From assembly GCA_035550275.1 (NCBI GenBank), contig DASZPQ010000023.1:13603-77602 (forward strand): a stretch of 64,000 nt of DNA, read 5' to 3'. The position numbers were made by a program, and so were the translations under genes. This document shows, piece by piece, positions 14,157 through 41,843 of the stretch. The stretch comes from Gaiellaceae bacterium (GTDB lineage Bacteria; Actinomycetota; Thermoleophilia; Gaiellales; Gaiellaceae). The notes below the pieces were generated by a model. The model saw nothing but the letters and a program-made list of their open reading frames with translations, was not told the DNA's origin and did not search any database. The first letter of the stretch is position 1. The number at the start of each line of letters is the position of its first letter.

Positions 14157-14825
14157 ATGGCGATTCTCGTAGTCGATGACGACCGGAGGCTGCGGAACGC
14201 GCTTCGGCGTGTCCTTGTCTCGAACGGGTTCGAGGTCGAGATCGCGGGCGACGGCGACGAAGCTCTCGCGCGCTTGCGCGCAGGAGGATTTGACGCGATG
14301 GTCCTTGACGTGATGATGCCCGGGAGCGACGGAGTCGAGGTCTGCGAGCAGCTGCGCGCGGCGGGGAACCAGCTGCCGGTGCTGATGTTGACCGCGCGCG
14401 ATGCAGTTCGTGACCGGGTCGCGGGTCTCGAGGCCGGCGCCGACGACTACCTCGTGAAGCCCTTTGCGAACGAGGAGCTCGTGGCACGGGTACGCGCGCT
14501 GTTGCGCCGGTCCGGTGGCGGCACCGAGCTGATGGTCTTCGCCGATCTCGAGCTCGACCTCCTGACCCGCGATGCGCGCCGAGGTGAGCGGGAGGTCGAG
14601 CTTTCCCCGATTGAATTCGAGCTGCTCGAGTTCTTCCTGCGCCACCCTCGTCAGGTGCTCTCGCGTGGGCTGATCTACGAGCGGGTGTGGGGTCATGACG
14701 CGTCGCTGTCGTCGAACTCGCTCGACGTGTTTGTCGGCCATCTGCGGCGCAAGCTGGAAGCCGACGGTGAGCGGAGGTTGATCCACACCGTGCGCGGTGT
14801 CGGCTTCACGTTGAGGGAACGATGA
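14157..14825 (+). CDS. OmpR/PhoB-family response regulator (module B)
   Basis: REC domain ILVVDDD...MVLDVMMPGSDG...KP, plus a winged-helix C-terminus SPIEFELLEFFLRHPRQVLSR...TVRGVGFTL. Confidence 0.9.
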   Translation: MAILVVDDDRRLRNALRRVLVSNGFEVEIAGDGDEALARLRAGGFDAMVLDVMMPGSDGVEVCEQLRAAGNQLPVLMLTARDAVRDRVAGLEAGADDYLVKPFANEELVARVRALLRRSGGGTELMVFADLELDLLTRDARRGEREVELSPIEFELLEFFLRHPRQVLSRGLIYERVWGHDASLSSNSLDVFVGHLRRKLEADGERRLIHTVRGVGFTLRER

Positions 14826-16174
14826 GCTTTCGGCTCCGCTTGACGGTGCTCGCCTCGCTGGCGGTCGCAGTCGCGATCGTCGGCGCATCCTTTGCCGTCT
14901 ACTACACAGACCGGCATGAGCTCATCGCGCAGGTCGACAACGACCTCAGCTCGAGCCTCACCTTGCCGCGACTGAACGCGGTCTTCTCCGATCGGATCGG
15001 CGATGTCACGCGCGTGTCCGGTCGCGCGGAATCGGGACAGTCGAACGTGGGCAAGTTGCTGGCCGGGCCTGTGGCCGCGAACGGATTCCGGGTTGTGTTG
15101 CCGCGCTCCTCGACCGCGGTCCAGGTGCAGATCTTCAAGCCCAAGCCCGGTAGCTCGCCGAAGGCGATCTCGCAGTCGACGTTCAGCACCTCAACCATCG
15201 ACGGCGTGCCGACCCGGACGCTCTCGATCAGCTCGAAAGCCCAGGTCGTGACGATCTCGCGCTCGCTCCTCGACGTCGATCACAACCTGTCGCGCTTGAG
15301 ATGGCTGCTTATCTTCATCTCGCTCGGGGGCATCGGCACGGCGGCGATTCTCGGTGCGCTGGTTTCGGGTCGAGCCGTCGCGCCGCTTCGCCGCCTGACC
15401 GAGACGACGGAGCGAATCGTCGAGACAGGCGATCTCAGCCAGCGAACGGGGCGGCGGGGACGCGACGAGATCAGCCGCCTCTCCACCCGGCTCGACGAGC
15501 TGCTTGCCAGCCTCGAGGCGTCGCTGCGGACTCAGCGGCAGCTCGTCGCCGACGCGTCGCATGAGCTGCGCACCCCGATCGCGACGCTTCGGGCGAACAT
15601 CGGGCTGCTGGCTCACCCTGGAACGCTCGGTCAGAGCGAGCGCTCCGAGCTGATCGAGGACGTTCAGGAGGAGCTCGAGTCGATGACCGCGCTGGTCGGG
15701 GAGCTCGTCGAGCTTGCGCGCGGGGAGGAGCCCGACGTCGTGCCGACGGAATTCAGGCTCGACGAGGTCGTCCAAGGAGCGGTCGACCGCGCCGCGAGAC
15801 GCGCGCCCGATCTCTCGTTCCAAACCAGGCTCGAGCCCTCGCTGATCACCGGCGTGCCCGAACGGGTCGAACGGGCCGTCACAAACCTGCTCGACAACGC
15901 GAGGAAATGGAGCCCGCCCAGCGAGACCGTCGATGTGGCCGTCCATGACGGCGTCGTCGAGGTACGCGACCGAGGGCCGGGAATCGCAGCCGAGGACGCG
16001 CCGCTCGTCTTCAACCGCTTCTACCGGGCGAAGGCTGCCCGCGGCATGCCTGGGGCCGGCCTCGGGCTGTCGATCGTGAAGCAGATCGCCGATGCCCACG
16101 GCGGGAGCGTGAGCATCGACCGGGCCGCTGACGGAGGCGCGATCCTGCGACTCCAGCTTTCATCGACTCCTTAG
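14822..16174 (+). CDS. Sensor histidine kinase (module B; about 130-aa extracytoplasmic loop, HAMP, HisKA, HATPase)
   Basis: H-box DASHELRTPIATLRAN, NLLDNARKWSP, DRGPGI, GAGLGLSIVK. ATGA overlap with the RR gene. Confidence 0.9.
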   Translation: MSFRLRLTVLASLAVAVAIVGASFAVYYTDRHELIAQVDNDLSSSLTLPRLNAVFSDRIGDVTRVSGRAESGQSNVGKLLAGPVAANGFRVVLPRSSTAVQVQIFKPKPGSSPKAISQSTFSTSTIDGVPTRTLSISSKAQVVTISRSLLDVDHNLSRLRWLLIFISLGGIGTAAILGALVSGRAVAPLRRLTETTERIVETGDLSQRTGRRGRDEISRLSTRLDELLASLEASLRTQRQLVADASHELRTPIATLRANIGLLAHPGTLGQSERSELIEDVQEELESMTALVGELVELARGEEPDVVPTEFRLDEVVQGAVDRAARRAPDLSFQTRLEPSLITGVPERVERAVTNLLDNARKWSPPSETVDVAVHDGVVEVRDRGPGIAAEDAPLVFNRFYRAKAARGMPGAGLGLSIVKQIADAHGGSVSIDRAADGGAILRLQLSSTP

Positions 16175-16199
16175 AGGCACTTTAGAGCCGTTTTAGAGC
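16158..16199 (+). promoter_or_regulatory. Four 11-bp-phased half-sites (TTTCAT / CTTAGA / TTTAGA / TTTAGA), candidate OmpR-type RR binding array upstream of P5
   Basis: TTAGAG at 16171, 16182 and 16193. TTTAGAGCCGT is perfectly tandem-duplicated. The array begins inside the last codons of the HK gene. A homologous block lies at 20608..20648. Confidence 0.45.
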
Positions 16200-16213
16200 C
16201 GTCGGCTTTCCTG

Positions 16214-16774
16214 TTGAGAGTGGCCCAAACGCTTGTCCTCGCTGTCCTGGTGATCCTGCTCGCTGCTGCCGCTGCAGGCTGCGGCGGCTCGAAGCCGGCC
16301 CCGGTCGCGAGCCTCGGAACGACGGTGACGACCGGCGCGGGCTCCCCGACAGCGCCGGCGGCGAGCAGAGCTGCGCTCGCCGCATGCTTCGGCTCACACG
16401 GATTCCCGGCCTCGGTCGGTTCAGCGAGCACGTCGAGCCAGACCCTCTCCGTGTTTGGAGTCCAGATCAGCGGAAACGTCGATCCGGGCTCGGCGCAGTT
16501 TCAGGCGGCGCTGCAGGCCTGCCGCAAGTTCATACCCGGCGGCGGGCCGCCTGCGCTGACGCCGGCGCAGGAGGCCGAGGCGGCAAAGGCGATGCTGAGC
16601 TTCGCCGCCTGTATGCGCAAAGACGGCGTGCCGACCTTCCCGGACCCGAACGGCCAGGGACGGTTCCCCCTCGGCAGCATCGGCAAGCTCGATCCGAGCG
16701 CGCCGCTCTTCCAGAGCGCCTTCAAGAGCTGCCAGCCGCTCGAGCCGAAGGTCGGGCCGAGGATCGTGTTCTGA
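16214..16774 (+). CDS. CxR-PDP repeat lipoprotein P5 (first half-domain degenerate)
   Basis: Lipobox AAAGC. The first half is degenerate (LAACFGSHGFPASVG) and the second is canonical (FAACMRKDGVPTFPDPN...SAPLFQSAFKSC). Start is TTG 16214 or GTG 16220. Confidence 0.75.
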   Translation: MRVAQTLVLAVLVILLAAAAAGCGGSKPAPVASLGTTVTTGAGSPTAPAASRAALAACFGSHGFPASVGSASTSSQTLSVFGVQISGNVDPGSAQFQAALQACRKFIPGGGPPALTPAQEAEAAKAMLSFAACMRKDGVPTFPDPNGQGRFPLGSIGKLDPSAPLFQSAFKSCQPLEPKVGPRIVF

Positions 16775-17436
16775 TGCGGATGATCGCCTCCCACCACGTG
16801 CGCGGGGCCGCGCTGGCCGCCGGCGTGGCGGCGCTCGGGCTCGCTGCAGCGGGCTGCGGCGGCGGCGCGAAGACGCCCGCGGTCGCGAACCTCGGCACCA
16901 CGTCGACACCAAGCACCACCACCAGCCCGGCGGCGGGCGGCGCCGTCGGGGACACGGGCGCGCAGGCCAGTAGCAGTGGAGGCGGCGGCACGCTGAGGAT
17001 GGTGGGCGGGAGCGTCCAGGAGCTGACGAAGCTCTCCGCCTGCATGCGCAAGAACGGCGTGCCGAACTTCCCGGACCCGAACGCACAGGGCGAGATCTCG
17101 ATCACCGGCATCGACCCGGGATCGGCGAGCTTCCAGCAGGCTCAGCAGGCTTGCCGGAAGCTGCTGCCGAACGGCGGGACGCCAAGTCCGGCGCAGCAGG
17201 CGCAGGCCCGCGCCCAGGCGCTCGCCTTCTCGGCCTGCATGCGCAAGAACGGTGTGCCGAGCTTCCCCGATCCGCAATTCGGGAGCGGAGGCCGCATCTC
17301 GATCAAGATCGGCCGCGGCCAGGGCATCGACCCGAGCTTGCCGCAGTTCCAAGCCGCCCAGAAGGCGTGTCAGAAGGACATCCCAGGCAAGTTCGGTGCC
17401 CCGGTCGGGGGCGCGGCCAAGTCGAGCGACGGGTAG
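16774..17436 (+). CDS. CxR-PDP repeat lipoprotein P6
   Basis: ATG at 16774 overlaps the P5 stop by 1 nt (TGATG). Lipobox LAAAGC. Motifs LSACMRKNGVPNFPDPN and FSACMRKNGVPSFPDPQ. The upstream part of ORF 16384 is rejected. Confidence 0.8.
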   Translation: MRMIASHHVRGAALAAGVAALGLAAAGCGGGAKTPAVANLGTTSTPSTTTSPAAGGAVGDTGAQASSSGGGGTLRMVGGSVQELTKLSACMRKNGVPNFPDPNAQGEISITGIDPGSASFQQAQQACRKLLPNGGTPSPAQQAQARAQALAFSACMRKNGVPSFPDPQFGSGGRISIKIGRGQGIDPSLPQFQAAQKACQKDIPGKFGAPVGGAAKSSDG

Positions 17437-17453
17437 GAGGAGAGCGCCTGGAG

Positions 17454-18113
17454 CTAGGCGCCCGGCACGACGAGCCCGGATTCGTAGGCGACGACCACGG
17501 CTTGCGCGCGGTCGCGAAGGCCGAGCTTGCGCAGAACATGGCTGACGTGCGTCTTCACCGTCTCATTGCTGAGCACCAGGTGCTGCGCGATTTCCTGGTT
17601 CGAGAGCCCACTCGCGATCAGGCCGAGAATCTCGAGCTCGCGCCGGGTGAGCGCGTCGAGCGCTTCGGGGCGGGTGCGCTGCGGCGGGCGGAGGCGGGCG
17701 AACTCCGCGATCAGGCGGCGCGTGATCACCGGCGCCAGGAGCGCGTCTCCGGCGGCGACGACCCGCACCGCTTCGAAGAGCGACTCGGGGGGAGCGTCCT
17801 TGAGCAGAAACCCACTGGCGCCGGCCTGGAGCGCGTCGTAGACGTATTCGTCCAGGTCGAAGGTCGTCAGGACGAGGACCCGCGGCCCGGCCCCGCCTGA
17901 GGCGCAAATCTCACGGGTGGCGGCGATGCCGTCGAGCACCGGCATCCGGATATCCATCAGCACGATGTCGGGCCGGTGCTCCTGGCTTTGCTGCACGGCC
18001 TCTTCGCCGTCCGCTGCGGTTGCGACGACGGTGAAGTCGGCCTGGGTCTCGAGCAGGGCGGCGAAGCCCGCGCGCACGGCCTGCTGGTCGTCGGCGATCA
18101 GGGCGCGGATCAC
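17454..18113 (-). CDS. NarL/FixJ-family response regulator (REC + LuxR HTH)
   Basis: IRALIADDQ...IVLMDIRMPVLDG and LTRRELEILGLIASGLSNQEIAQHLVLSNETVKTHVSHVLRKLGL. Confidence 0.9.
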   Translation of the reverse strand: MIRALIADDQQAVRAGFAALLETQADFTVVATAADGEEAVQQSQEHRPDIVLMDIRMPVLDGIAATREICASGGAGPRVLVLTTFDLDEYVYDALQAGASGFLLKDAPPESLFEAVRVVAAGDALLAPVITRRLIAEFARLRPPQRTRPEALDALTRRELEILGLIASGLSNQEIAQHLVLSNETVKTHVSHVLRKLGLRDRAQAVVVAYESGLVVPGA

Positions 18114-19279
18114 GGCGTGGGCTCGCTGATCGGGAGCGTGATCTCCACCTCGAAGCCGCCCTCTTCGGCGGGCCCCGAGGCGAAGGTGCCGCTCGCGAGC
18201 GCCGCGCGCTCGCGCATTCCCATCAGGCCGTGCCCCTCGACCGGCTCGCCGCCCGGTGCGCCGGGGCCGTAGTCACGCACGCGCAGCTGGAGCATCTCGT
18301 CGCGATAGGAGACCTCGACATCGACGTTTGCGCCCGGAGCGTGGCGTCGTGCGTTCGTCAGCGCCTCCTGGATGATCCGGTAGGCGGCCAGATCGATGCT
18401 CAGAGGCAAGCGCACGACCTTCCCCTGCCGGATCAGGCGGACCGGCGTTCCGGAAGCTTCGGCCTTGGCGATCAAGTCGTCGAGATCGTCGAGCCCGGGC
18501 TGCGGCGCGCGGTCGGCTTCGCCGGCCGTGTCCTCCCGAAGGACTCCCAGTAGGCGGCGCGTCTCGGTGAGCGCCTCGCGAGCGGTCGAGGCGATTGCCT
18601 CGAGGCGGCCGCCGGCTTCCGAGGAGAGCTCCGGCGAGGTGCGCCGCGCGACCTCGCTCTCGATCGCGATCACGGACAGATGATGCGCCACGATGTCGTG
18701 GAGCTCGCGCGCGATGCGGGCTCGCTCTTCCATCACCGTCCGAGCGCGGGTGCTCTCGGCCATCGCCTCCTGGGTCGCGTCAAGCTCTGCGACCGCGAGC
18801 CCGCGTTTGCGGAGCGACTCGCCGACGATCAGGGCGCCGGCCAGGAAGAGCAGGGTCGTGTCGCTCGTGAAGCCGGCATTGGCGCCATCGAACCGCGGCG
18901 TGGCGAGGACCAGGAACGGAATCAGGAGCGGAGCGGCAAAGAGCAGGCCGCGCTGGATCACGAGCCGGACGAACAGGAAGAGCATCACGCAGAACGGCAT
19001 GATGCTGAGCGGTGTGCGGTGTGCCACGAGCACGACGGTGACCACGGTGGCTGCCAGCGCGGCGAGAGTCGGCCAGCGCCGAGCCAGTAGGAGCGCCGCG
19101 ACTGCAAGCACGTTCAAGGCGATCGTGATCTCGAGGACCTTCGCGGACACGTCCTTTGCGAGCAGCGCCTCGAGAACCGTCGCCAGCACGAGCACGCTCG
19201 TCAGGACGACTCGTCCGGGGCGGCCGGAAAGCAGACGCCGCAGCTCGACGAGCAGCGGCTCGATGTCTGACGTGTCCAC
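18110..19279 (-). CDS. Sensor histidine kinase, HisKA_3 (NarL-partner) type, multi-TM N-terminus
   Basis: RIARELHDIVAHHLSVI H-box, EALTNARRHAP, and GHGLMGMRERAA at the C-terminus. The stop overlaps the RR start. Confidence 0.85.
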   Translation of the reverse strand: MDTSDIEPLLVELRRLLSGRPGRVVLTSVLVLATVLEALLAKDVSAKVLEITIALNVLAVAALLLARRWPTLAALAATVVTVVLVAHRTPLSIMPFCVMLFLFVRLVIQRGLLFAAPLLIPFLVLATPRFDGANAGFTSDTTLLFLAGALIVGESLRKRGLAVAELDATQEAMAESTRARTVMEERARIARELHDIVAHHLSVIAIESEVARRTSPELSSEAGGRLEAIASTAREALTETRRLLGVLREDTAGEADRAPQPGLDDLDDLIAKAEASGTPVRLIRQGKVVRLPLSIDLAAYRIIQEALTNARRHAPGANVDVEVSYRDEMLQLRVRDYGPGAPGGEPVEGHGLMGMRERAALASGTFASGPAEEGGFEVEITLPISEPTP

Positions 19280-19445
19280 GGCCCCATTGTCGTCGCTCTC
19301 TCCGTCGCGGCGCGTCGCGCGGGCAAACGATCTTCGCCCTCACTCCACAGGGTGAGAAGCGGCCGAAACTCACCGCCCGGCGGCGGTCGAAAGACGGCGC
19401 TTCCGCGCGACGCGGGCAATCGATCTCGTTTCTACCGTTCTGGCC

Positions 19446-19991
19446 ATGCATCGCCGCCGCTCATTCCTCGTTGCCTCGGCCGTTCCCGCCGCTGTGTTGG
19501 CACTGCTTTCCGCCGGATGTGGTGGCAATTCGCCGGCGGCGGGCGTCAGCACCACGTCGTCGACGTCCTCCACCACGACGAACGGCCCGCTCGCCTTCGC
19601 GCGCTGCATGCGCGCCCACGGGCTGTCGAAATGGCCCGACCCGACGAGTAGCGGGGTCTTCGACAAGGCGACGCTGCGCCAAACCGGGTATAGCGAGTCC
19701 CAGGTCAGGGCGGTCGAGGACGGCGCCTGCGCTCAGCTGCTTGGCGGCGCGTCGCCTCAACGGCCGACGATCACCGCCGCCGACCGGGCCGACTACCTCG
19801 CGGCAGCCGCCTGCATGCGAACGCACGGGTTCGCAGGCTTTCCCGATCCGACGTTCCTGAACGGCGGCGTCCAGACCAACGTCCCGGCGACCATCGACCA
19901 GGACTCCTCCCGGTTCAAAGCTGCGGCGACGACCTGCACGAAGCTGATACCGGCGGGTCTTCCCTACAGCAGACCGAGCGGTTCGGGCTAA
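19446..19991 (+). CDS. CxR-PDP repeat lipoprotein P7
   Basis: Lipobox LLSAGC. Motifs FARCMRAHGLSKWPDPT (shares WPDPxSSGVFDK with P4) and AAACMRTHGFAGFPDPT. Confidence 0.8.
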   Translation: MHRRRSFLVASAVPAAVLALLSAGCGGNSPAAGVSTTSSTSSTTTNGPLAFARCMRAHGLSKWPDPTSSGVFDKATLRQTGYSESQVRAVEDGACAQLLGGASPQRPTITAADRADYLAAAACMRTHGFAGFPDPTFLNGGVQTNVPATIDQDSSRFKAAATTCTKLIPAGLPYSRPSGSG

Positions 19992-20000
19992 TCGCCCGGT

Positions 20001-20588
20001 GTGATGCGAAGCCGCGTACTCATCCTCGGTTCCGTCGTCCCGCTGGCCGTGTTGTCGCTGCTCGCGGCCGGTTGCGGCGGCGGTGGCGGCTCCGCTCCGG
20101 GCATTGCGAGCGTGGCCTCTTCCACCACCGCGACGACCACGCCGGCGCAGAACGGGCTGCTTGCCTTCTCCGCCTGCATGCGCTCCAACGGGATGCCGAA
20201 CTTCCCCGATCCTCAGCACTTCGTCGGAGGAAACGTGAAGCTGACGCTGCACCAGCTCGGGACCGGCAATCCGAAGTTCCAGGCCGCCATCAGCGCCTGC
20301 AATCACCTGCTCCCCTCGAACGGCGGCGGAAGCTCGGACACGGCGCAGGAGCAGCGCACGAAGATCGCGGACGGGCTCTCGTTTGCCAGATGCATGCGCA
20401 GCCATGGCGTTGCCCGTTTCCCCGATCCGAGCGCGCAGGGCGACTTGACGGTCGAGATGGTTCAGGCACAGGGGATCGACGTCCATTCCCCGGCAGTCCT
20501 GCATGCGATCCAGACCTGCCTGCCGGCGTCGCACGGTGCGCTCACGCCGGCGAAGGTCAGAGAGGCGCTCAGCAATGCAGGCGGCTGA
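20001..20588 (+). CDS. CxR-PDP repeat lipoprotein P8
   Basis: Lipobox LLAAGC. Motifs FSACMRSNGMPNFPDPQ and FARCMRSHGVARFPDPS. Lies 9 nt after the P7 stop. Confidence 0.8.
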   Translation: MMRSRVLILGSVVPLAVLSLLAAGCGGGGGSAPGIASVASSTTATTTPAQNGLLAFSACMRSNGMPNFPDPQHFVGGNVKLTLHQLGTGNPKFQAAISACNHLLPSNGGGSSDTAQEQRTKIADGLSFARCMRSHGVARFPDPSAQGDLTVEMVQAQGIDVHSPAVLHAIQTCLPASHGALTPAKVREALSNAGG

Positions 20589-20607
20589 ACCGGCTCCGCG
20601 GCTGCTG

Positions 20608-20648
20608 TTTCATCGACTTGTTAGACGGCCTTTAGAGCTGTTTTAGAA
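20608..20648 (+). promoter_or_regulatory. Second copy of the four-half-site array (TTTCAT / GTTAGA / TTTAGA / TTTAGA), upstream of the adaptor-ABC operon
   Basis: TTAGAC at 20621, TTAGAG at 20632, TTAGAA at 20643, all at 11-bp phasing. About 52 of 66 nt are identical with 16158-16223. Confidence 0.4.
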
Positions 20649-20806
20649 CGAGACGCTTTCCTTCTTGATGGATGATCGAGTCACAGAGAGCCGGACGGGT
20701 CGCCTCAGGTCGATTCAAGGCGAAGGCAGCCGGCCGGTGACCGTGCTCTCGCCGCTGCTCGCGCCTGGTCGAGTGGCGCGGGCTGTCTCTCCGAGCGCAG
20801 GCCTGC

Positions 20807-22366
20807 GTGTCTGAGACCGAGGACACCCTTGTCTCGGCGCCGCAGCGGCTGACGCCGCCGGCTCCGCGCCGCCTGCAGTTGTCGAGGCGGTCGCTGATCG
20901 CGCTCGGCGCGGGCGTCGCCGTGGTCGTGGCGGTCGTGATCGCATTCGCAAGCGGCGCGTTCGGTGGCGGCAGCGCCGCACCGGGGTCGGCAGACAACCC
21001 GTATCCGACGTCGCTCCAGACGGTGACGCGGCAGTCGTTGACCCAGCAGACGCAGGTGAGCGCCACGCTCGGCTACGCAGACCCAGCGACGATCGTCGCG
21101 CCTGCCGGGACGACACCCCAAGATCTCGCGCAGGCGAAGCAGGCTGCGACGACCGCCCAGACCCAGCTCCAGACCGCACAGGCGGCATTGACGGCGGACA
21201 AGGCGACACTGGATCAGGCGAACGCGAGCCTGTCCGCGGACCGGGCGAAGCTGGCCGTCGACTGCGGCGGCGACAACGCCGGCGAAAGCGCTGCGAGCCC
21301 TTCCGCGTCCGGCTCCGGGAACGGCTCCGGCTCCGGTGCGTGCGCGACGGACTCGCAGTCCGTCTCGGCCGACCGCCAGAGCGTCACGCAGGCAGCGGCG
21401 AAAGTCGCGAGCGACCAGCAGGCCACCACGTCGGCGACGACGGCGCTCGCGACCGCCGCAGCGAGCCTCACACAGGCGGAGTCGTCGGGCACGGTCTACG
21501 GGCAGAGCTCGACCTACACCGAGCTCCCGGCGGTCGGCGCGATCGTGAAGCGGGGCCAGACCCTCTACGAGATCAGCGGCGCACCGGTTGTCGTGCTCTA
21601 CGGATCGGTGGCGCCCTGGAGGGCGTTCATGTCCGGCATGTCGCCGGGGCAGGACGTCGCGGAGCTGAACTCGAACTTGCGCGCGCTCGGCTATGGCTCA
21701 GGTCTGAGCGGCGACGCGTTCACCTCTGAGACCGTGTCGGCGATCGACGCCTTCCAGTCCGCACGCGGGCTCAGCCAGACCGGGCAGCTACTGCTTGGCT
21801 CGGTGGTGTTCGAGCCGGGGCCGGTGCGGGTCACCACCGTGACGCCGACGCTCGGGGCGACCGTCCAGGCCGGCCCGGTGCTCGGCATCACCTCGCTCGT
21901 CCGCCAGGTGACGATCGCGCTCGATGCGGCCCAGCAATCCGACCTCAAGGTCGGCGACCCGGTCACGATCACGCTGCCCGACAACAGCACGACGCCGGGG
22001 AAGGTTTCCTACGTCGGCACCGTCGCCACCGTCCCATCGAGCTCCGACCAGGGTGGCGGTGGCTCGAGCTCGCCGACGATCGAGGTCGACGTCACGCCAA
22101 CCGACCCGGCGGCGACCGGCCATCTCGACCAGGCGCCGGTCAACGTCTCGATCACAACCGGCAGCGTCCAGAACGCACTGACCGTGCCGGTCAACGCGCT
22201 GCTTGCGCTCGCCTCCGGCGGCTACGCCGTCGAGGTGGCGGGAGCGGGCGGCGTCCACCACTTGGTCGGGGTCCAGCTCGGCCTCTTCGACGACGCGAAC
22301 GGATTGGTTCAGGTCACCGGCACCAGCCTGACCGTCGGCACGCGCGTGGTGGTGCCGAGCACATGA
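20807..22366 (+). CDS. Periplasmic-adaptor (HlyD/MFP-like) protein with inserted peptidoglycan-binding domain (module B)
   Basis: N-terminal TM segment [20 protein letters not shown]-rich coiled coil. PG_binding_1-like segment [49 protein letters not shown]-terminal beta-barrel segments typical of MFP adaptors. ATGA overlap with the ABC ATPase gene. Confidence 0.85.
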
Positions 22367-23124
22367 CCGCCGTCTCCGCCACCGACTCGACCCTGACCAT
22401 GCCGGCGCCGGCGAGCGATCGCGGCCCGGAGACGGTGCTCGAGCTCGATGACGTGACCAAGCTCTACGGCAGCGAGCCGCCGGTGATCGCGCTCGACGGC
22501 GTCAGCTTCAGCGTCCACCGCGGCGAGCTGCTCGCGATCGTCGGCCCGTCCGGCTCGGGCAAGTCGACGCTCCTGCATCTGATGGGCACGCTCGACCGGC
22601 CAAGCTCCGGAACCGTTCGAATCACCGGCCTCGACGTCGCCGGCCTCACCGACCGGGAGCTGGCCGCGCTGCGTGCGACGCGGATCGGGTTCGTCTTCCA
22701 GCAGTTCTTCCTCGCCGAGCACGCAACGGCATTGGAGAACGTCGCGGACGGGCTGCTCTATACGGGCGTTCCGGTCGCGGAGCGGCGCGAGCAGGCAGCC
22801 GGCGTGCTTGCCTCGGTCGGGCTTGGCGACCGCCTTAAAGCGCGGCCGACCCAGCTCTCCGGCGGCGAGCGGCAGCGGGTTGCGATCGCTCGTGCCCTCG
22901 TCGGGCGGAAGGCGATCGTGCTCGCCGACGAGCCGACAGGAAACCTCGACAGCACCACTGGCGCCGCGATCCTCGCCCTCCTGCACGAGCTGCACGCGGG
23001 CGGCGCGACGATTGTCGTGATCACCCACGATCGCGACCTCGCAGCCGGCCTGCCCCGTCAGGTCGAGATGCTCGACGGACGGATCGTCACCGACACCGCC
23101 AATCAGAAAGGCGGGCTCGGATGA
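22363..23124 (+). CDS. ABC transporter ATP-binding protein, MacB/LolD type (module B)
   Basis: Walker [10 protein letters not shown], signature [15 protein letters not shown], Walker [14 protein letters not shown]-loop ITHD. Confidence 0.95.
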
Positions 23125-24998
23125 GCATTCCGCGGATCCATCACAGCTCGACACGGCGTGTTCTCGCCGCGCTGGCTCTCGTTACCGGGATCGGTGTCAG
23201 CGGCGCGATCATCGGCGGGCCCGCGCCCGCCTCGGCCGACACCTGCCCGGCCTCGAACCCGCCGAACGAATTGCTCCTGAGCAGCGGCTCCCCCCAGACG
23301 GCGAGGCTGCATCAGCCCTTCGGCGAGACCTTGCAGGTGACGCTCGCGAACACGAATGGCTGCTCGGTCACGACGAACCAGACCGGCGTCGCAGTCACCT
23401 TCACGGCACCGTCGAGCGGCGCGACCGGAACCTTCTCGGCGAGCGGCTCCAACTCGGTCACCGTCGGCACGAACTCCTCGGGCCAGGCGAGCGCGGCCGG
23501 CTTCACCGCGAACAGCGTCGCCGGCAGCTACACGGTCAGCGCCAGCTCCAGTTACGGCAGCATCTACTTCTCGCTGGCGAACACCGCGAACGGCGTCGCC
23601 GCGGCGATCACGCCGGGCTCGCCGGCGAGCCCGTAGGCACCGGTCGGGAGTCAGTACCTGCAGCCGTTGCAGGCGACGGTGGTCGATGCCAACGGCAGCC
23701 CGATCGACGGTGCGAGCGTCACGTTCACGCTCGGCGCGAGCGGCGGCGGAGGCGGAGGCGGTGCCGGAGGCTCCGGTGCGAGCACGCCGGCCGCGAGCTT
23801 CGCCGGTGGCGCCAGCCAGGCGACCGAGCTGACGAACGCCGCCGGCACCGCCACCTCGCCGCTGTTCACCGCCAATACGACTGCCGGGATGTTCACCGCA
23901 ACCGCCGCCACGGCCGGTGTCACGGAGCCGGCGAGCTTCGCGCTCGACAACCTGGCCGGGGCTCCGCTCAGGATCGCCGCGCTTGCGCCGGCGAAGCAGT
24001 CCGCAACGACCGGTGCCCGCTACGGCAAGCCGCTGCAGGTGAAGCTGCTCGACGGGAGCGGCAAGCCTGTCCAAGGGGCGACGGTGACCTTCACGCTCGG
24101 CTCCGCCGCGAGCGGCGGTGGCGGCGGCGCGGGTGGGTCTGGATCCGCCACTGCGGGCGCGACCTTCGCCGACGGCTCGAGCCAGGCAACCGCGACGACC
24201 GACGCCTCCGGAGTCGCAACGTCGCCGCGCTTCAGCGCGAACACGACGGCGGGGCCGTTCACCGCGACCGCGACCACGACCGGCACGGACAATGTGGCGA
24301 GCTTCTCGCTCGACAACCTGGCCGGCCACTCGCCGACGATCGCGACCGACGGGAAGTCGAAGCAGTCGGCGACGGTCGGCGCCCGGTACGCCAAGCCGCT
24401 GCAGGTGAAGGTGCGCGACGCACACGGCAAGCCGCTTCAAGGAGCGAGCGTCACGTTCACGCTCGGCGCCGCGGGCAGTGGCGGCGCGGGCGCAGCAAGT
24501 GCGGCCGGTGCGAGCTTCGTCGGCGGCGGCAGCCAGGCAACCGAGGTCACGAACGCAGCCGGAATCGCCAGCTCGCCGCGCTTCGCTGCCAACACGACGG
24601 CAGGAGCCTTCACCGCGACCGCGACCACGGCGGGGACGACCAGGGCAGCAAGCTTCCCGCTTCGCAATCTGCCTGCGCAGCCGGCGACGATCACGGCCGG
24701 AGTGGCGGCGAGCGAGTCGGCCCCTGTCGGAACGCGCTTTCCGGTCCGGCTCGCCGTCACCGTCAGTGACAAGAACGGGAACGCGGTTACGGGTGTCACG
24801 GTGAGCTTCTCCGCGCCCGCCCATGGCGCCAGCGGTCACTTCGGCAAGAAGCGCACCGTGAAAGTGAAGACCGACGCCAAAGGCGTTGCCGTCACCCCGG
24901 TCTTCGTCGCCAACCGGAAGCCGGGCGGATACATCGTGCGGGCGAGAGCCGCCGGCCACTCGGCCGCGTTCGCCCTCGTCAACCAGCCAGCGGCCTAG
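23121..24998 (+). pseudogene. Secreted Ig-like (invasin/Big_1-like) five-repeat surface protein interrupted by one in-frame TAG (23634..23636)
   Basis: ORFs 23121..23636 and 23667..24998 are in the same frame and are separated only by a TAG. The repeat alignment continues straight through the stop (GSPASP*APVGSQY versus GVAASESAPVGTRF). The N-terminus resembles a signal or Tat-like leader (TRRVLAALALV...ASA). The start overlaps the ATPase stop (ATGA), and the stop TAG abuts the permease ATG. Confidence 0.7.
23637..24734 (+). repeat. Three tandem 366-nt (122-aa) coding repeats inside the Ig-like gene, flanked by two more divergent copies
   Basis: The PLQ(A/V)(T/K)V anchor recurs at 23667, 24033 and 24399 (period 366), then at 24744. 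Each unit contains a poly-Gly/Ala/Ser insertion (for example GASGGGGGGGAGGSGAS). Confidence 0.7.
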
Positions 24999-26204
24999 AT
25001 GAGCACGACCGGGTCGCTGACACCCGTGAAGCTGCGGCCGGGCGACCTGGCCCGCATCGCCAGCGTCGGGCTCCGCACGCGCCGCATGCGCGCCGCGCTC
25101 TCGGCACTCGGGATCGCGATCGGCGTCGCCGCGATCGTTGCCGTGCTCGGTCTCTCGGCGTCCTCGCGGTCAGGCTTGCTGGCCGAGATCGACCGGCTGG
25201 GCACGAACCTGCTCACCGTCACCACCGGCCAGACGCTCTTCGGAGCGACGGCCGAGCTGCCGCTTGCCTCGCCAGGGATGATCGCCCGCATCGGGCCGGT
25301 CACACAGGTCGCGGATACCGGCTCGACCAGCGTGAACGTCTACCGCAGCCCGCTGATCCCGTCTGTGAACACGAATGCCCTTCAGGTGCAGGCGGCGACG
25401 CTGAACCTGCTTCCCGCGGTCGGCTCGACCGTCGCCCGGGGCAGCTATCTCAACACTGCCACCGCGACCGAGCCTGTGTGCGTGCTCGGCGCTCAGGCCG
25501 CGCAGCTACTCGGTATCGACCGCGTCTACCCGGGCGAGCGCGTTTGGCTCGGCGGCATGTGGTTCTACGTCACCGGCATCCTCACCTCCGCCACGCTTGC
25601 TCCCGAGATCGACAGCAGCGTGCTCGTCGGCTTCCCCGCCGCCGACAAGTACCTCGGCCTCGACGGTCATCCGACGACGATCTACGTTCGCGCCGTCACC
25701 ACCCAGACCGCCGCGGTGCAGGCCGTCCTCGCTTCGACCGCCAACCCGGAATCTCCGAATGAGGTGAACGTGAGCCAGCCGTCGGCTGCGCTTGTCGCGC
25801 GCGCGGACGCGCAGGGGGCGCTGAACGGCCTCTTCCTGGGGCTCGGCGCCGTCTCGCTGCTCGTCGGCGCGGTCGGCGTTGCCAACATCATGATCATCTC
25901 CGTCCTCGAGCGCCGCAGTGAAATCGGCCTTCGACGGGCGTTGGGCGCGACCAAAGGGAACATCCGCGCCCAGTTCCTGAGCGAGGCGATCCTGCTGGCG
26001 CTGCTCGGCGGCGCGGCCGGCGTCGGCTTCGGAGTCCTCGCAACCGCCGTCTATGCGCACACGAAGCACTGGGCGGTCGTGATCCCGACGCTCGCCTGGG
26101 CGGGCGGCCTCGGCGCCGCCTTCGCAATCGGCGCCGTTGCCGGCCTCCTGCCTGCGATCCGCGCAGCGCGTCTCTCACCGACAGACGCCCTTCGCACGGT
26201 CTGA
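24999..26204 (+). CDS. ABC transporter permease, MacB/FtsX type (module B)
   Basis: N-terminal TM, then a periplasmic MacB_PCD-like domain of about 230 aa, then FtsX helices VGVANIMIISVLERRSEIGLRRALGATKGNIRAQFLSEA. Confidence 0.9.
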   Translation: MSTTGSLTPVKLRPGDLARIASVGLRTRRMRAALSALGIAIGVAAIVAVLGLSASSRSGLLAEIDRLGTNLLTVTTGQTLFGATAELPLASPGMIARIGPVTQVADTGSTSVNVYRSPLIPSVNTNALQVQAATLNLLPAVGSTVARGSYLNTATATEPVCVLGAQAAQLLGIDRVYPGERVWLGGMWFYVTGILTSATLAPEIDSSVLVGFPAADKYLGLDGHPTTIYVRAVTTQTAAVQAVLASTANPESPNEVNVSQPSAALVARADAQGALNGLFLGLGAVSLLVGAVGVANIMIISVLERRSEIGLRRALGATKGNIRAQFLSEAILLALLGGAAGVGFGVLATAVYAHTKHWAVVIPTLAWAGGLGAAFAIGAVAGLLPAIRAARLSPTDALRTV

Positions 26205-26213
26205 CGCCGGCGG

Positions 26214-27017
26214 CTAGTCGACCGCGCGCCGGTAAAAGCCGCGCGTGCCGACCGCGAGGAGGAGAGCCAGCGATCCCGCGAGCACGAGGAGGCAGATCCA
26301 GGGCTCGATGTGCGGGACGGACGGGATCAACGCTCCGCGCAGGCCCTCGCTCACGTAGGTCATCGGGTTGGCGGCGGTCAGGATCTGGAACCAGCGCAGG
26401 CGCGCGAGCGACGGCCATGGGTACTGGCTGCAGCCGGTGAAGAGCAACGGCGTGAAGACGAGCGAGAAGACGATGTTGATCCGGTTCGGCTTCACCAGCG
26501 TTCCGAGCACGAGCCCGAGCGCGGCGCCGAGAAGCGCTCCGAGCACGACGAAGGCCAGGAAGAGCGGAAGCCCGGCCGCGCGCCACGGGATCGAGCCGAG
26601 GACGAGGATCCCGATCGGGATCATCACCGCCGTCGCGATCAACGACCGGATCGCTGCGAACAGCACCTTCTCGGCCGCGACGAGTCCGGTCGACATGGGG
26701 GCGAGGAGCCGGTCCTCGATCTCCTTCGTCCAGCCGAACTCGATCACGAGCGGGAAGGCGAGCGTCTGCATGCTCGTGACCACGGCGGTGAGCGCGAGCA
26801 GGCCGGGGAAGAGCAGGTCGGCGTAGCCGGTCCGGGTGTAGCCCAGGCTGCCGAGCACCTTCCCGAAGATGAAGAGCAGGAAGAACGGCTGCAGGATCAC
26901 CTGGGCGAGGAAGACCGGAAACTCGCCCCACGTGACGTAGATGTCGCGCTGGAGCACGGCGAGAAACACGCGCCGCTGGGTCGGGACCACGTCGAGGCCC
27001 GGCGTCGTCGCGCTCAT
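26214..27017 (-). CDS. ABC-2 type exporter permease (DrrB-like)
   Basis: 267 aa with 6 TM helices. N-terminus FLAVLQRDIYVTWGEFPVFLAQVILQPFFLLFIFG is typical of the ABC-2 family. ATGA-type overlap with the ATPase gene. Confidence 0.85.
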   Translation of the reverse strand: MSATTPGLDVVPTQRRVFLAVLQRDIYVTWGEFPVFLAQVILQPFFLLFIFGKVLGSLGYTRTGYADLLFPGLLALTAVVTSMQTLAFPLVIEFGWTKEIEDRLLAPMSTGLVAAEKVLFAAIRSLIATAVMIPIGILVLGSIPWRAAGLPLFLAFVVLGALLGAALGLVLGTLVKPNRINIVFSLVFTPLLFTGCSQYPWPSLARLRWFQILTAANPMTYVSEGLRGALIPSVPHIEPWICLLVLAGSLALLLAVGTRGFYRRAVD

Positions 27018-28024
27018 CGCAGCGCTCTCCCGGTCAGGCCGATGAAGACGTCCTCGAGCGTGGGGATGCCGAGCTTCACGTCGGAAAGCGCCGCGCCGTG
27101 CGCGGCGAGCACACCCGCCGCCGGAGCGACCAGGAGCGGAGCATCGCCCACGACATAGAGCCGCACCCGCAACTGGCCGCCAGGGCCTTCGGGGGATTCG
27201 AGCCGCTCGACGCGCTCGACCTCGGCGAGCGCTCCCAGCCCGCCGATGATCGCCTCGGCCCGCGCCGGGTCGTCGCTCTGCGTCGTGAGCTCGAGCGTGG
27301 TGCCGCCGGGCACCGAGCGCATCAAGAGCTCTGGCGTGTCGAGCGCCAGCAGCTTCCCGTGATCCATGATCCCCACCCGGTCGGCGAGTGCAGCCGCCTC
27401 GTCCATGTCATGCGTCGTGAGCACCAGCGTGACCCCGGCATGGCGCAGCTCCTGCAGCCGGTCCCAGAGAAAGAGCCGCGCGGCCGGGTCGAGCCCGGTT
27501 GACGGCTCGTCGAGGAACAGCACCTTCGGCGCGTGCATCAGCGCCCGTGCCACCATCACGCGCTGGGCCTGCCCACCCGAGAACATGTCCGGCTTCACGT
27601 TCGCCCGCTCGAGCAGCCCGAACTGCTCGAGCAGCTCGTCGGCGCGCTGCGCCCGCTCGCGCGAGGAGACTCCGTGGTAGGCGGCGTGGAAGATCAGGTT
27701 GTTGCGGATCGAGAGGGCTCGGTCGAGGTTGCTGCGCTGCGGGATCACCGCGAGCGCGCTCCGGGCCCGCACGGGATCTCGAACCACATCGACGCCCGCG
27801 ACCGAGGCGAAGCCGCTCGTCGGCACGACCCGCGTCGTCAGGACGCCGATCGTCGTCGTCTTCCCGGCGCCGTTCGGGCCCAGCAGCCCGAACACCTCGC
27901 CCGGCTGAACGTCGAACGTCACGCCGTCAACGGCGTTGACCGGCGCCTTCGGATACCGCTTGACCAGGTCGCGAACGCTGACGGCGCTCGTCGCCGCCCG
28001 GTCGACCCCGTTTACCTCACCCAT
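27014..28024 (-). CDS. ABC transporter ATP-binding protein (DrrA/daunorubicin-resistance-like)
   Basis: Walker A GPNGAGKTT, signature FSGGQAQRVMVARAL, Walker B LFLDEPSTGLD, plus a C-terminal extension. Confidence 0.9.
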   Translation of the reverse strand: MGEVNGVDRAATSAVSVRDLVKRYPKAPVNAVDGVTFDVQPGEVFGLLGPNGAGKTTTIGVLTTRVVPTSGFASVAGVDVVRDPVRARSALAVIPQRSNLDRALSIRNNLIFHAAYHGVSSRERAQRADELLEQFGLLERANVKPDMFSGGQAQRVMVARALMHAPKVLFLDEPSTGLDPAARLFLWDRLQELRHAGVTLVLTTHDMDEAAALADRVGIMDHGKLLALDTPELLMRSVPGGTTLELTTQSDDPARAEAIIGGLGALAEVERVERLESPEGPGGQLRVRLYVVGDAPLLVAPAAGVLAAHGAALSDVKLGIPTLEDVFIGLTGRALR

Positions 28025-28033
28025 CGGCCGGCG

Positions 28034-29251
28034 TTACCCCGAGTTGCTGAGTGAGGCCAGAGCCGATTGCTCCCTCGGCGGCTTTGCGCCGGGCTGCGGC
28101 GCCGGCCGTCCCAGCAGCCAGCCCTGGCCGAAGCCGACGCCGAGCTTGATCAGCGCACCGAGCTCGGCGTCGCTCTCGATCCCCTCCGCGACGATCGTCG
28201 TGTCGCTCTTCTCGGCGAAGGAGATCAGGCCGGCGGCGAGCGCCTGCTTTGACCGGTCGAGGTCGATGCCATTGATCAGGGTCATATCGAGCTTGATCAG
28301 ATCAGGATCCAGATTCAGAATGTGGCGGAGGCTGGCAAATCCCGAGCCTGCGTCGTCAACCGCGAGCCGGACTCCAAGGCACCGTAGCTTGCTCACCGCG
28401 TCGGCCAGGCGATCGTAGTCGGCGATCCGCGCGTGCTCGGTGATCTCGACGACAAGCTGTCCGCCGTTCACGCGCGAGACGAGGTCGTGGAAGGCGGTCG
28501 CAGCGAGTGTCGTCGGAGAGACGTTGACGGCGAGGTAGACGTCGCTCGGAAGCTGACGCATCGCGGCGGCGGCCTTTTGAACTGCGACAAGCTCGAGATC
28601 GTCGCCAAGGCCGACTTCTGCCGCGTCCGCGAACCAGACGTCAGGTGTCTGCGTCGGCGGCCCCGCAAACCGCGCGAGCGCCTCGACCCCGATCAGCTTC
28701 CGCCCGCGCAGAGCGACGATCGGCTGAAAGACCATCGCGAAAGCCTTCTCGTCCTGGAGCGCGAGCCGGATGCGCTGCTCTTGCAGCGACTGCTTCTTCC
28801 TGGCCTGGGATTGGATCGCGAGCTGCGAGCTGAGCTCATCGATGATGTCGCTCGTCACCTCGGGCGAGAGGCTGCCCTGGCCTTCGGGCGCGCGCTTGAC
28901 CGCCCGGATGATCTCGTCGATCGGGCAGCCCTTGATCAGGTAGCCGACGACCCCGACCTCGAGCATCGCGAGCACCGTCGACCGGTCGCCGTTTCCCGAG
29001 AGCGCGATCATCTTCGAGCCGGGAGAGCACTTCTTGATTCCCTTTGCCGCCTCCAGGCCGCCGCCGGCGGGCATATCCACGTCGAGCAGAACGACATCGG
29101 GCCGCTGTGCGTCGGCGATGGCGATCGCCTCGGTCGCATCCGAGGCTTCCCCGACGAGCTCGAACGCGGGCTCGCTGCGAATCGAGTCCGCGAGCACGTC
29201 CCGGACGATCGGCTCGTCGTCTGCGATCAACACTCGCAATCGCGCCGTCAC
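28034..29251 (-). CDS. Response-regulator receiver + EAL domain protein (putative c-di-GMP phosphodiesterase)
   Basis: REC domain VLIADDEP...VLLDVDMPAGGG. EAL-domain motifs QPIVAL...GVEALAR, EITEHA, LAVDDAGSGF, IKLD, VAEGIE, GQGW. Confidence 0.9.
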   Translation of the reverse strand: MTARLRVLIADDEPIVRDVLADSIRSEPAFELVGEASDATEAIAIADAQRPDVVLLDVDMPAGGGLEAAKGIKKCSPGSKMIALSGNGDRSTVLAMLEVGVVGYLIKGCPIDEIIRAVKRAPEGQGSLSPEVTSDIIDELSSQLAIQSQARKKQSLQEQRIRLALQDEKAFAMVFQPIVALRGRKLIGVEALARFAGPPTQTPDVWFADAAEVGLGDDLELVAVQKAAAAMRQLPSDVYLAVNVSPTTLAATAFHDLVSRVNGGQLVVEITEHARIADYDRLADAVSKLRCLGVRLAVDDAGSGFASLRHILNLDPDLIKLDMTLINGIDLDRSKQALAAGLISFAEKSDTTIVAEGIESDAELGALIKLGVGFGQGWLLGRPAPQPGAKPPREQSALASLSNSG

Positions 29252-31091: not shown

Positions 31092-31397
31092 CCACGTGCT
31101 CGCTCACGGATTCTTTGCCTGATCACGATCACTGCTTCGAACGAGCATGTTGTCTTAATGAAGACACGGATTGACCTTTCTGTCTCGAGCCTGTCGATCC
31201 CTGCTTCTCTCCAACCCAGCAACGGCGGAGCTCGCCGTAAACGCTACGTCGGCATCGCTCCCCACTTGCTTTAGGGCCTTGCCTCCCGGGTTCGCGTACC
31301 CGGCTCACCTCTTCCGGATGCCAGAGCGCTCGAAAACGGGGATCGCCGTGTCTTTCGGCGCTGCCGATCGATTGGTCAAGCCAACAAGGGGAGGAAC

Positions 31398-31643: not shown

Positions 31644-31651
31644 ATCACCCG

Positions 31652-41785: not shown

Positions 41786-41843
41786 CCGAAGCTCGTGTCA
41801 GCGCCGCCTGCCGGTCTCGGTGGGCGGCGCTGTTACCTCCGGT

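Follow-up and report, generated by a model that had tools for sequence, protein, structure and literature searches.

A sensor-linked lipoprotein family and a predicted MacAB-like pump in a conserved actinobacterial gene unit, locally expanded in a Gaiellaceae genome

In the lantibiotic-immunity systems LanI-LanFEG-LanRK (e.g. NisI-NisFEG-NisRK) an OmpR-type two-component system (TCS), a compound-binding lipoprotein and an ATP-binding cassette (ABC) exporter are combined. The same three-part logic is present in the locus described here, located at positions 14157–26204 of a 64 kb stretch of DNA (the window; GC content ~68%) from the metagenome-assembled genome (MAG) of a Gaiellaceae bacterium (Thermoleophilia; assembly GCA_035550275.1, contig DASZPQ010000023.1). 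The locus carries TCS genes, members of a lipoprotein family and an ABC pump operon that includes an adaptor with a peptidoglycan (PG)-binding domain. Another known arrangement, that of CpxP-CpxRA, CseA-CseBC, LpqB-MtrAB and HbpS-SenSR, places the gene of a small extracytoplasmic helical protein divergently from, or after, the genes of an envelope-stress TCS.

MacAB-like pumps of monoderm bacteria protect against peptides acting on the membrane or the wall; their adaptor tubes span the inner-wall zone, and purified YknX binds peptidoglycan in vitro (PMC5985334, PMC5768738). The role of MacB-type adaptors in bacteria lacking an outer membrane is unresolved (PMC5985334), a question made testable by the PG-binding domain and the lipoprotein partner reported here. 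An accessory lipoprotein of a tripartite pump is already known in YbjP, a partner of MacAB-TolC (PDB 9qgy; PMC13082787). In the Aat/Cex system (AatPABCD with dispersin or CexE), a tripartite system of MacB type moves a small acylated protein encoded adjacently (PMC7943197). FtsX-family ABC systems of Streptomyces coelicolor, which are different two-gene systems, respond to wall antibiotics (PMC3123327).

Gene calls in the window were made by open reading frame (ORF) listing, translation and scans against Pfam and NCBIfam models. The calls confirmed the genes, their order and the domain types given for this region in an earlier note on the same DNA: an OmpR-type response regulator (RR) and histidine kinase (HK), lipoprotein genes P5 and P6, an inverted NarL-type TCS, lipoprotein genes P7 and P8, and then adaptor, ATPase, immunoglobulin (Ig)-repeat and FtsX-type permease genes. 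We found that this gene set is a conserved actinobacterial unit, in which a TCS stands beside one or more lipoprotein genes, mostly followed by a MacAB-like pump. The flagged region is a locally expanded Gaiellales version of the unit, with extra sensors, lipoprotein paralogs and an Ig-repeat gene. Its boundary is arbitrary: TCS-A and lipoprotein genes P1–P4 of the same supercluster abut on it, and one more paralog, P9, stands with a complete pump of its own at 43471–49928. The earlier note knew of no characterised system with this component set. No paper describing the cassette or a Streptomyces counterpart was found in the literature searched, which agrees with the note; the pump, however, is of the YknXYZ/Spr0693-0695 kind and not a new machine.

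Two independent samples of loci were used to assess conservation. The motif-anchored sample came from a scan with a degenerate DNA motif over genomes taken one per species, which gave at least 120 chunks of 8 kb; the chunks were annotated by local hidden Markov model (HMM) searches and by phmmer with the window proteins. The distance limits for counting were 2.5 kb for an OmpR-type RR and 1.5 kb for a PG-binding adaptor. True members of the lipoprotein family were detected in 111 of 120 chunks. At these 111 loci we found both an RR and an adaptor in 38 cases, an RR only in 24, an adaptor only in 13 and neither in 36 (24 of the 36 being cut by the chunk end); in total, 62 loci had an OmpR-type RR near the lipoprotein gene and 51 had a PG-binding adaptor there. 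Of the 52 loci that no chunk end had truncated, 27 had both genes, 12 an RR only, one an adaptor only and 12 neither (RR in 39, adaptor in 28). Eight of the nine chance-hit chunks had neither RR nor adaptor; chance-hit chunk L088 contained a TCS-adaptor-ATPase-FtsX cassette with no detectable lipoprotein ORF.

The adaptor-anchored sample consisted of 80 soil-metagenome loci. The lipoprotein gene was located immediately 5′ of the adaptor gene in 50 of the 51 loci with enough upstream DNA, and an OmpR-type system was found upstream in 21 of 24. The recurrent order is HK and RR divergent from lipoprotein, adaptor, ATPase and FtsX permease genes. In the motif-anchored loci the lipoprotein gene is usually the first, and sometimes the sole, gene in the divergent target position. 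The cassette was detected in the cultured genera Streptomyces, Micromonospora, Dactylosporangium, Actinomadura, Spirillospora, Microbacterium and Microlunatus, as well as in MAGs of Acidimicrobiia, Thermoleophilia (including Solirubrobacterales) and, in a few cases, other phyla. The co-occurrence proposed in the earlier note for lipoprotein, PG-binding adaptor, MacB-type ABC genes and TCS is therefore present across Actinomycetota, and the conserved synteny on which that note had staked its proposal was decisively found in both samples. The same note had described the lipoprotein genes as pairs. The pairs P5-P6 and P7-P8 do exist, but pairing is not a conserved feature, since relatives have from one to several lipoprotein copies.

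The lipoprotein family has nine paralogs in the window, P1–P9. All have a lipobox of the pattern [LA][AVS][AG]C (e.g. LLAAGC, LLSAGC, LAAAGC, AAAAGC) and agree with the signal of bacterial lipoproteins (Lgt/Lsp substrates), an [LVI][ASTVI][GAS]C lipobox; P1–P9 are predicted to be lipidated. The lipobox is followed in the nine paralogs by a low-complexity, flexible tether of Ser, Thr, Ala and Gly with a length of roughly 10–50 residues. The core consists of two repeats, each made of a helix, a C-x-R-x-x-G-x-x-x-[FWY]-P-D-P loop and a helix with a Cys. Four Cys residues and the R, G and FPDP positions of the second repeat are invariant among the nine; the spacing of the Cys puts one pair in each repeat, as would suit disulfides. 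At the DNA level the CxR...FPDP motif occurs 14 times in the window, while none is expected from shuffled sequences.

With a profile of the nine paralogs, 10,838 representatives of clusters at 50% identity were matched at E ≤ 1e-3, and 6,457 still passed a threshold of E ≤ 1e-10. No Pfam or NCBIfam model matches the family, NCBI names its members 'hypothetical protein', and no description of it was found in the literature searched. Among PDB sequences the family profile matched only signal peptides of other lipoproteins. An AlphaFold2 (AF2) model of P8 was all-helical with moderate confidence (predicted local distance difference test, pLDDT, 71.8); a fold search of PDB with this model gave no match (best E 3.4). 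One UniRef member carries the label 'Phospholipase A2' (PLA2), which we rejected: hhalign against S. violaceoruber PLA2 (1FAZ) returned a probability of 0.15%, no Pfam PLA2 match was seen for the family even at E ≤ 10, and the His of the catalytic CxRHD motif of group XIV PLA2 is not conserved. Charge analysis of the cores revealed no bias (pI, the isoelectric point, ~6.7–9.6 for the window paralogs, with a sample median of ~7). A search of longer family members for domain fusions brought up tandem duplications and, as the sole fusion, a weak one with ABC2_membrane_2 (27.7 bits). The latter is in family representative P0295 (538 aa), where the lipoprotein domain is C-terminal (355–528) and the weak ABC2_membrane_2 match is N-terminal. 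P0295 is a hint at best: it may join the family to ABC exporters by domain fusion, or be an artefact of gene calling.

P5 (16214–16774, + strand; lipobox AAAAGC) has a degenerate first repeat and overlaps P6 (16774–17436, +) as TGATG; P7 (19446–19991, +) and P8 (20004–20588, +) were likewise assigned by lipobox and family alignment. The N terminus of P7 (19446–19475), MHRRRSFLV, resembles a twin-arginine (Tat) motif, and the remaining paralogs look Sec-type. P8 is 100% identical to an NCBI entry named 'hypothetical protein, Gaiellaceae bacterium'; the best 120 of its 3,534 search matches were all orthologs, with 66–84% identity. Most paralogs have clear positional counterparts in related genomes L003–L005, with 53–75% identity. 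The P5 ortholog (L005_6409, 65%) has the equivalent place after HK-B, the P6 ortholog (L005_9087, 63%) is immediately 5′ of the adaptor gene in L005, and P7 has orthologs L004_8770 (53%) and L003_8464 (65%). Identities of other counterparts are 67.5% for P2, 62% for P4 and 75% for P8; the best positional matches of P1, P2 and P4 in L004/L005 are within 55–68%. P3 and P9 match related genomes only at ~37–47% (P3 in L004/L005 at ~45–47%). Given these positional counterparts, the paralogs, six to eight of them in the expanded region, are old and individually maintained.

The pump operon consists of four genes, which, as the earlier note had observed, are start/stop-coupled: adaptor/ATPase and ATPase/Ig-repeat junctions are ATGA overlaps, and the TAG stop of the Ig-repeat gene abuts the ATG of the FtsX permease gene. 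The adaptor, a membrane fusion protein of 519 aa (20807–22366, +), has a PG_binding_1 domain (35 bits versus a cut-off of 23) as an insert at residues 282–319; like P8, it is 100% identical to an NCBI protein of a Gaiellaceae bacterium. In sequence searches of PDB it matched only PG-binding domains, so the adaptor fold was confirmed through structure prediction. The AF2 model (pLDDT 79.6) has a transmembrane (TM) anchor at 28–48, an α-hairpin of 2 × ~50 residues, and lipoyl, β-barrel and membrane-proximal domains. Its best Foldseek matches were MacA structures (9qgy_G, 5nik_D, 4dk0), then AcrA, MexA and Spr0693, all with probability 1.00 and with E values down to 6e-14; CusB and EmrA also reached probability 1.00, and ZneB was matched too. 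Sequence identity to solved adaptors is only ~12–15%.

The ATPase (22363–23124, +; Pfam ABC_tran) has MacB (224.5 bits), LolD (220.3) and FtsE (204.5) as top NCBIfam models. Since all scores are below the equivalog cut-offs (308 for LolD), the protein is assigned to the MacB/LolD/FtsE group at the family level only. The permease of 401 aa (24999–26204, +) contains MacB_PCD (33–243) and FtsX (282–394) domains and is predicted to have four TM segments (at 32–50 and within 285–389), with a periplasmic core domain between TM1 and TM2. Its best PDB sequence matches are MacB (5gko, 5lil, 5nik) and S. pneumoniae Spr0695 (5xu1); the MacB model gives 102 bits versus 30.4 for lolCE, whose cut-off is 362. 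An exact-protein look-up of the permease had no match. No TolC-family exit duct was detected among the annotated window ORFs; such a duct is a requirement of the Gram-negative form only. Taken with the Thermoleophilia host and no TolC-type gene, the domain content and models point to a MacAB-like pump, i.e. a monoderm subtype of the MacB-type (type VII) ABC transporter with an adaptor.

Between ATPase and permease genes is the Ig-repeat frame (23121–24998, +; Pfam Big_1), whose product would be secreted or anchored. It is interrupted by an in-frame TAG at 23634–23636, codon 172 of 626. Orthologs are uninterrupted (392 aa in L004, 730 aa in L005) and have an ordinary residue at the TAG position. 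The part 3′ of the TAG has no signal peptide, and the interruption is therefore either a pseudogene mutation or an error in the consensus of the MAG. A genuine stop codon at this place would have a polar effect on the permease gene, which abuts the frame. An Ig-repeat ORF was found in all 30 adaptor-anchored relatives with sufficient downstream DNA and was absent from the cassettes of other orders among the motif-anchored genome loci; the gene is conserved within the clade of the adaptor-anchored relatives.

The sensors of the window are of several kinds. RR-B (14157–14825, +; Response_reg and Trans_reg_C) is an OmpR-family regulator, the end of which overlaps the start of HK-B as ATGA. By hydropathy, HK-B (14822–16174, +; HAMP, HisKA and HATPase_c) has an extracytoplasmic domain of ~135 aa flanked by TM segments 8–26 and 163–181; in many of the metagenome loci its orthologs precede lipoprotein and adaptor genes. 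TCS-A (HK 9524–10978 and OmpR-type RR 10975–11673, − strand) is outside the flagged coordinates, is divergent from P1–P4 and has orthologs in the equivalent position in L004 and L005. The external domain of HK-A is likewise ~135 aa. TCS-C (43471–45253, −; RR 44558–45253) was classified with NCBIfam as a VanS-O-like HK with a VanR-O-like RR, and the external loop of HK-C is only ~30 aa.

Among 61 RRs located beside a lipoprotein gene, with or without a pump, 54 were RR-C-like (35 with a pump, 19 without), seven RR-B-like and none RR-A-like. RR-C and HK-C have VanR-O (436.5 bits, cut-off 505) and VanS-O (484.6 bits, cut-off 720), respectively, as by far the top matches, and Joint Genome Institute annotation labels HK-C orthologs 'VanS'. 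VanR-O was also the top NCBIfam model for all eight cassette RRs tested elsewhere (L037, L089, L125, L113, L008, L049, L024 and L005, with hosts Streptomyces, Dactylosporangium, Microlunatus, Actinomadura, Acidimicrobiales and L005), nine of nine with RR-C included; these eight scored 214–407 bits against the cut-off of 505, with the next model at ~160–175. VanS-O was top for HK-C, the sole cassette kinase tested. For RR-B/HK-B and RR-A/HK-A the top model was neither VanR-O nor VanS-O. The predominance of RR-C-like regulators, together with these top models, indicates that the widespread cassette uses a VanRS-O-like pair and that sensor types A and B are Gaiellales additions. The earlier note had placed the OmpR system at the head of the module; this has to be revised, as RR-B/HK-B is lineage-specific and the regulator of the wider sample is VanR-O-like (54 of 61). 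RR-B/HK-B with P5-P6 is a separate sensor-lipoprotein unit 5′ of the pump operon, which is headed by P7-P8. No vanHAX genes (vanH-ligase-vanX) were detected among ORFs annotated beside TCS-C or around the flagged region, and none was seen near the eight cassette RRs of other loci. In soil surveys vanRO and vanSO are the most frequent 'resistance genes' reported (PMC9952835). Given that the cassette pair is VanR-O/VanS-O-like, many of these calls may be regulators of this cassette and not parts of vancomycin-resistance operons.

The NarL-type system comprises a NarL/GerE-type RR (17454–18113, −; Response_reg and GerE, with NarL, MctR and MadR as best NCBIfam models) and a HisKA_3 kinase (18110–19279, −; Pfam) with MadS/LiaS-type NCBIfam matches below cut-off. 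The kinase has 5–6 N-terminal TM helices and no extracytoplasmic domain by hydropathy. The earlier note had taken this pair for an inverted insertion. Instead, it holds the divergent promoter-proximal place beside the P7-P8-pump operon, and NarL-type systems recur beside lipoprotein genes elsewhere (L048, L053, L054, L061, L067, L072, L118 and L134); the NarL-type pair is a genuine alternative partner of the lipoproteins. The divergent intergenic region between the NarL-type system and P7 (19280–19445, 166 nt) contains a 23-nt direct repeat, 19311–19333 and 19404–19426, of the form CGCG..CGCGGGCAA[A/T]CGATCT with a spacing of 93 nt. The exact 15-nt core of the repeat has two copies, both in this region, and is found nowhere else in the window. 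The repeat is a possible operator pair. A scan for promoter and terminator consensus sequences did not do better than on shuffled sequences. A separate promoter for the adaptor operon may lie between P8 and the adaptor gene; in many relatives the gap between lipoprotein and adaptor genes is only ~25 nt. The spacer itself, of 219 nt (20589–20806), is less GC-rich than its surroundings (TTAGACGGCCTTTAGAGCTGTTTTAGAACGAG...).

The function that we favour, with about even confidence, is that of a sensor-controlled envelope-stress or detoxification module in which the lipoprotein acts as an induced effector at the outer face of the membrane. The kinases would detect damage or a compound at the membrane/wall interface; cell-wall-active agents are the likely signal because of the VanS-O-like partner and the D-Ala-D-Ala (DD-) carboxypeptidase gene present in some cassettes. 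The regulators would then activate the neighbouring lipoprotein genes together with the pump operon. Working by ATP-driven mechanotransmission on the outer face of the membrane, the pump would take up its substrate at the membrane surface or in the inner-wall zone and push it along the adaptor tube, which would be fixed in the wall by means of the PG-binding domain. Tethered lipoproteins might capture the compound, hand it to the periplasmic domain of the permease and thereby give specificity; many old paralogs, each beside its own sensor, could then form a panel of specificities feeding one pump.

Several observations weigh against this proposal. The regulatory role given to VanRS-O is itself deduced from the position of its genes, and the resemblance of the cassette pair to it is below the NCBIfam cut-offs. 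The lipoprotein has no relative of known function in sequence or fold, so substrate capture is an inference only, and the charge of its core is not biased in a way that would point to cationic-peptide binding. About 30% of the sensor-linked loci (12 of 39 uncut) have no pump nearby, and such loci fit an independent effector or a sensor accessory equally well. In the window, the interrupted Ig-repeat gene may have impaired this copy of the pump operon.

A sensor-accessory role is unlikely, if slightly less so than the other alternatives. Here the lipoproteins would be co-sensors or feedback modulators of the adjacent kinases (as for CpxP/CpxA, CseA/CseC, LpqB/MtrB and HbpS/SenS), with the pump as one member of the regulon. 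Linkage to the TCS is indeed tighter than linkage to the pump (12 RR-only versus one adaptor-only among uncut loci), each sensor of the supercluster has its own conserved paralog or paralogs, and a small helical extracytoplasmic protein encoded divergently from an OmpR-type system mirrors cpxP-cpxRA. The ~30-aa loop of the VanS-O-like kinase is typical of partner-reliant kinases. However, the kinases next to which the family is found have a ~30-aa loop, a ~135-aa extracytoplasmic domain or no external domain, and specific binding to a sensor domain is hard to square with at least three unrelated sensor architectures for one family. Nor does the presence of up to four tandem paralogs per kinase (P1–P4) suit an accessory, and the near-obligate place of the gene before the adaptor is left unexplained. 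The three unrelated sensor architectures, the target-gene position and the place before the adaptor are the reasons for preferring an effector to a co-sensor.

That same place before the adaptor (50 of 51 loci) would be natural if the lipoproteins were cargo, as in one of the two models of the earlier note, a Lol-like extraction and delivery machine. A MacAB-like machine would extract them from the membrane and pass them via the adaptor tube to the wall or surface, as a monoderm counterpart of LolCDE or, with a closer resemblance, of Aat/Cex. The presence of many paralogs per pump agrees with such a role; so do the small, compact, disulfide-stapled proteins with long tethers and the Aat/CexE precedent of a MacB-type system with adjacent acylated cargo (PMC7943197). 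We nevertheless find cargo unlikely. Lipoprotein-sensor units without a pump are common (12 of 39 uncut sensor-linked loci), the permease is closer to MacB (102 bits) than to LolC/E (30 bits), and a two-domain protein of 13–15 kDa is large compared with the Spr0693 gating ring of ~10 Å (PMC5768738). Screening of part of the window ORFs revealed neither an acyltransferase nor a LolA-like acceptor. The Lol-like model received no positive support, with 30 bits for lolCE against a cut-off of 362 and with an adaptor present; lipoprotein cargo as such keeps some probability through the Aat precedent. In a bolder version, quite unlikely in our judgement, the lipoproteins would be a new stress-induced, disulfide-stapled class that the pump extracts from the cytoplasmic membrane and delivers into or through peptidoglycan via the wall-anchored adaptor tube, a dedicated route of monoderm Actinomycetota under VanRS-like sensors.

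A role in homeostasis of copper or other heavy metals, with CusF/CopC-like lipoproteins, a CusB-like adaptor and CusRS/CopRS-like sensors, is very improbable. HK-B can be aligned over its entire length with the model of the heavy-metal sensor kinase subfamily (159 bits) and the RRs score 150–205 bits with the cztR/silR/copR model, but none of these scores reaches the cut-off, and OmpR-family systems in general give scores of this kind. The motif CMRSHG holds Cys, Met and His; its Met and His are not conserved (CMRKNG, CMRKDG, CLREHG, CMRDNG), and the paired invariant Cys fit disulfides. CusB and ZneB are among the fold matches of the adaptor, yet the pump is of ABC/MacB type and not of resistance-nodulation-division (RND) or P-type, while the DD-carboxypeptidase and the PG-binding domain point to the wall. 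Finally, the view that the lipoproteins are unrelated neighbours in a gene-dense regulatory island is scarcely tenable: the window is unusually rich in signalling genes, and sensor and lipoprotein order and number do vary among relatives, but the genes are found together repeatedly in different classes of Actinomycetota, their order and orientation being conserved, and this co-occurrence is absent from eight of nine chance-hit control loci.

The cassette at 43471–49928 looks like the widespread form of the system. Divergent from TCS-C, on the + strand, it begins with a Peptidase_S11 D-Ala-D-Ala carboxypeptidase gene (45328–46413), similarly placed in L010 and L057. The genes that follow encode lipoprotein P9 (46410–46934), a short PG_binding adaptor with no long hairpin (46889–48013), the ATPase (48010–48708) and a MacB_PCD/FtsX permease (48705–49928).

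Directly 5′ of the flagged region, on the + strand, are P1 (11785–12357), P2 (12354–12884), P3 (12989–13561) and P4 (13558–14112), assigned by lipobox and alignment. A LuxR-type regulator (AAA_16 and GerE domains, ~915 aa) flanks the supercluster both in the window (6774–9527) and in L004 (14475–17222); possibly it, too, is a conserved regulator of the island. Directly 3′ of the permease gene (26214–29251, −) are genes of an ABC-2 type permease, its ATPase and a response regulator with an EAL domain (cyclic di-GMP phosphodiesterase); these were not conserved beside the cassette in the relatives examined. Signalling genes are dense in the interval 30012–43124, where they encode a PAS kinase, a hybrid kinase containing three receiver domains, one further kinase and an EAL-HDOD protein. 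Five lamin-tail domains occur in a 1,507-aa protein encoded in the same island (37262–41785), and an NlpC/P60 wall hydrolase is encoded further on (56715–57974). The sole Rfam match in the window is a tRNA at 63.7 kb.

The unit is widespread in soil Actinomycetota and is present in the genetically tractable Streptomyces, Micromonospora and Microbacterium, which makes experiments feasible. Among its cultured carriers are Streptomyces sp. 184 (CP123230, 3.640–3.648 Mb), Dactylosporangium (CP192015, 10.072–10.080 Mb) and Spirillospora NBC_00431 (CP107927). A large unnamed protein family (~10^4 clusters at 50% identity) gains a context through its tight tie to envelope sensors.

Comparison with described systems separates the parts of the locus. 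The VanR-O/VanS-O pair of the Rhodococcus equi vanO cluster is like the cassette pair in top model and in its short-loop kinase, with cassette scores below the cut-offs; unlike vanO, the flagged region itself uses other sensor types. The CpxP-type proteins have no detected sequence or fold similarity to the present lipoproteins, which are predicted to be lipid-anchored and disulfide-stapled. LanI is unrelated to them in sequence and fold class, and LanFEG is of ABC-2 type and has no adaptor.

LolCDE, like Aat, is a MacB-family machine moving small lipidated proteins; it has no adaptor and needs LolA/LolB, while Aat needs a TolC-like duct and the acyltransferase AatD. None of these partners (duct, AatD, LolA/LolB) was identified among the ORFs screened, a screen that did not extend to every ORF and included no dedicated LolA/LolB search. 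BceRS-BceAB is, like the present unit, an FtsX-family ABC system coupled to a TCS and likely a resistance-plus-signalling unit against wall-active compounds. BceB has 10 TM segments with a ~200-aa extracellular domain between TM7 and TM8, and works with no adaptor or lipoprotein (PMC5985334, PMC9020739); the permease here has four TM segments and an adaptor. BceS, which pairs with an OmpR-type regulator, is an intramembrane-sensing kinase with two TM segments and a minimal loop, unlike HK-B with its ~135-aa external domain and the HisKA_3/NarL-type kinase with 5–6 TM helices. The second model of the earlier note, a Bce-like module, fails on this architecture (four and not 10 TM segments, adaptor present).

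In structure, the adaptor model is closest to its counterpart in E. coli MacAB-TolC, as is the permease in sequence. That system has an outer membrane and TolC and, unlike the pump described here, no separate ATPase polypeptide; its partner YbjP is a TolC binder and not a relative of the CxR...FPDP lipoproteins. Closest in composition are YknWXYZ of B. subtilis, Spr0693-0694-0695 of S. pneumoniae and AS-48EFGH of E. faecalis, which have, like the present pump, an adaptor, a separate ATPase and a four-TM MacB_PCD/FtsX permease in a cell with no outer membrane. Their adaptors also have a TM anchor and an α-hairpin tube reaching the wall. Unlike them, the locus described here has no YknW-like gene and, in Gaiellales, an Ig-repeat gene between ATPase and permease genes; it has a dedicated PG_binding_1 insert in the adaptor, a lipoprotein gene before the adaptor gene and an adjacent TCS. 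What appears to be new, with parts of known kinds, is a MacAB-like pump with a PG-anchored adaptor that is combined with a dedicated uncharacterised lipoprotein family and VanRS-O-like control.

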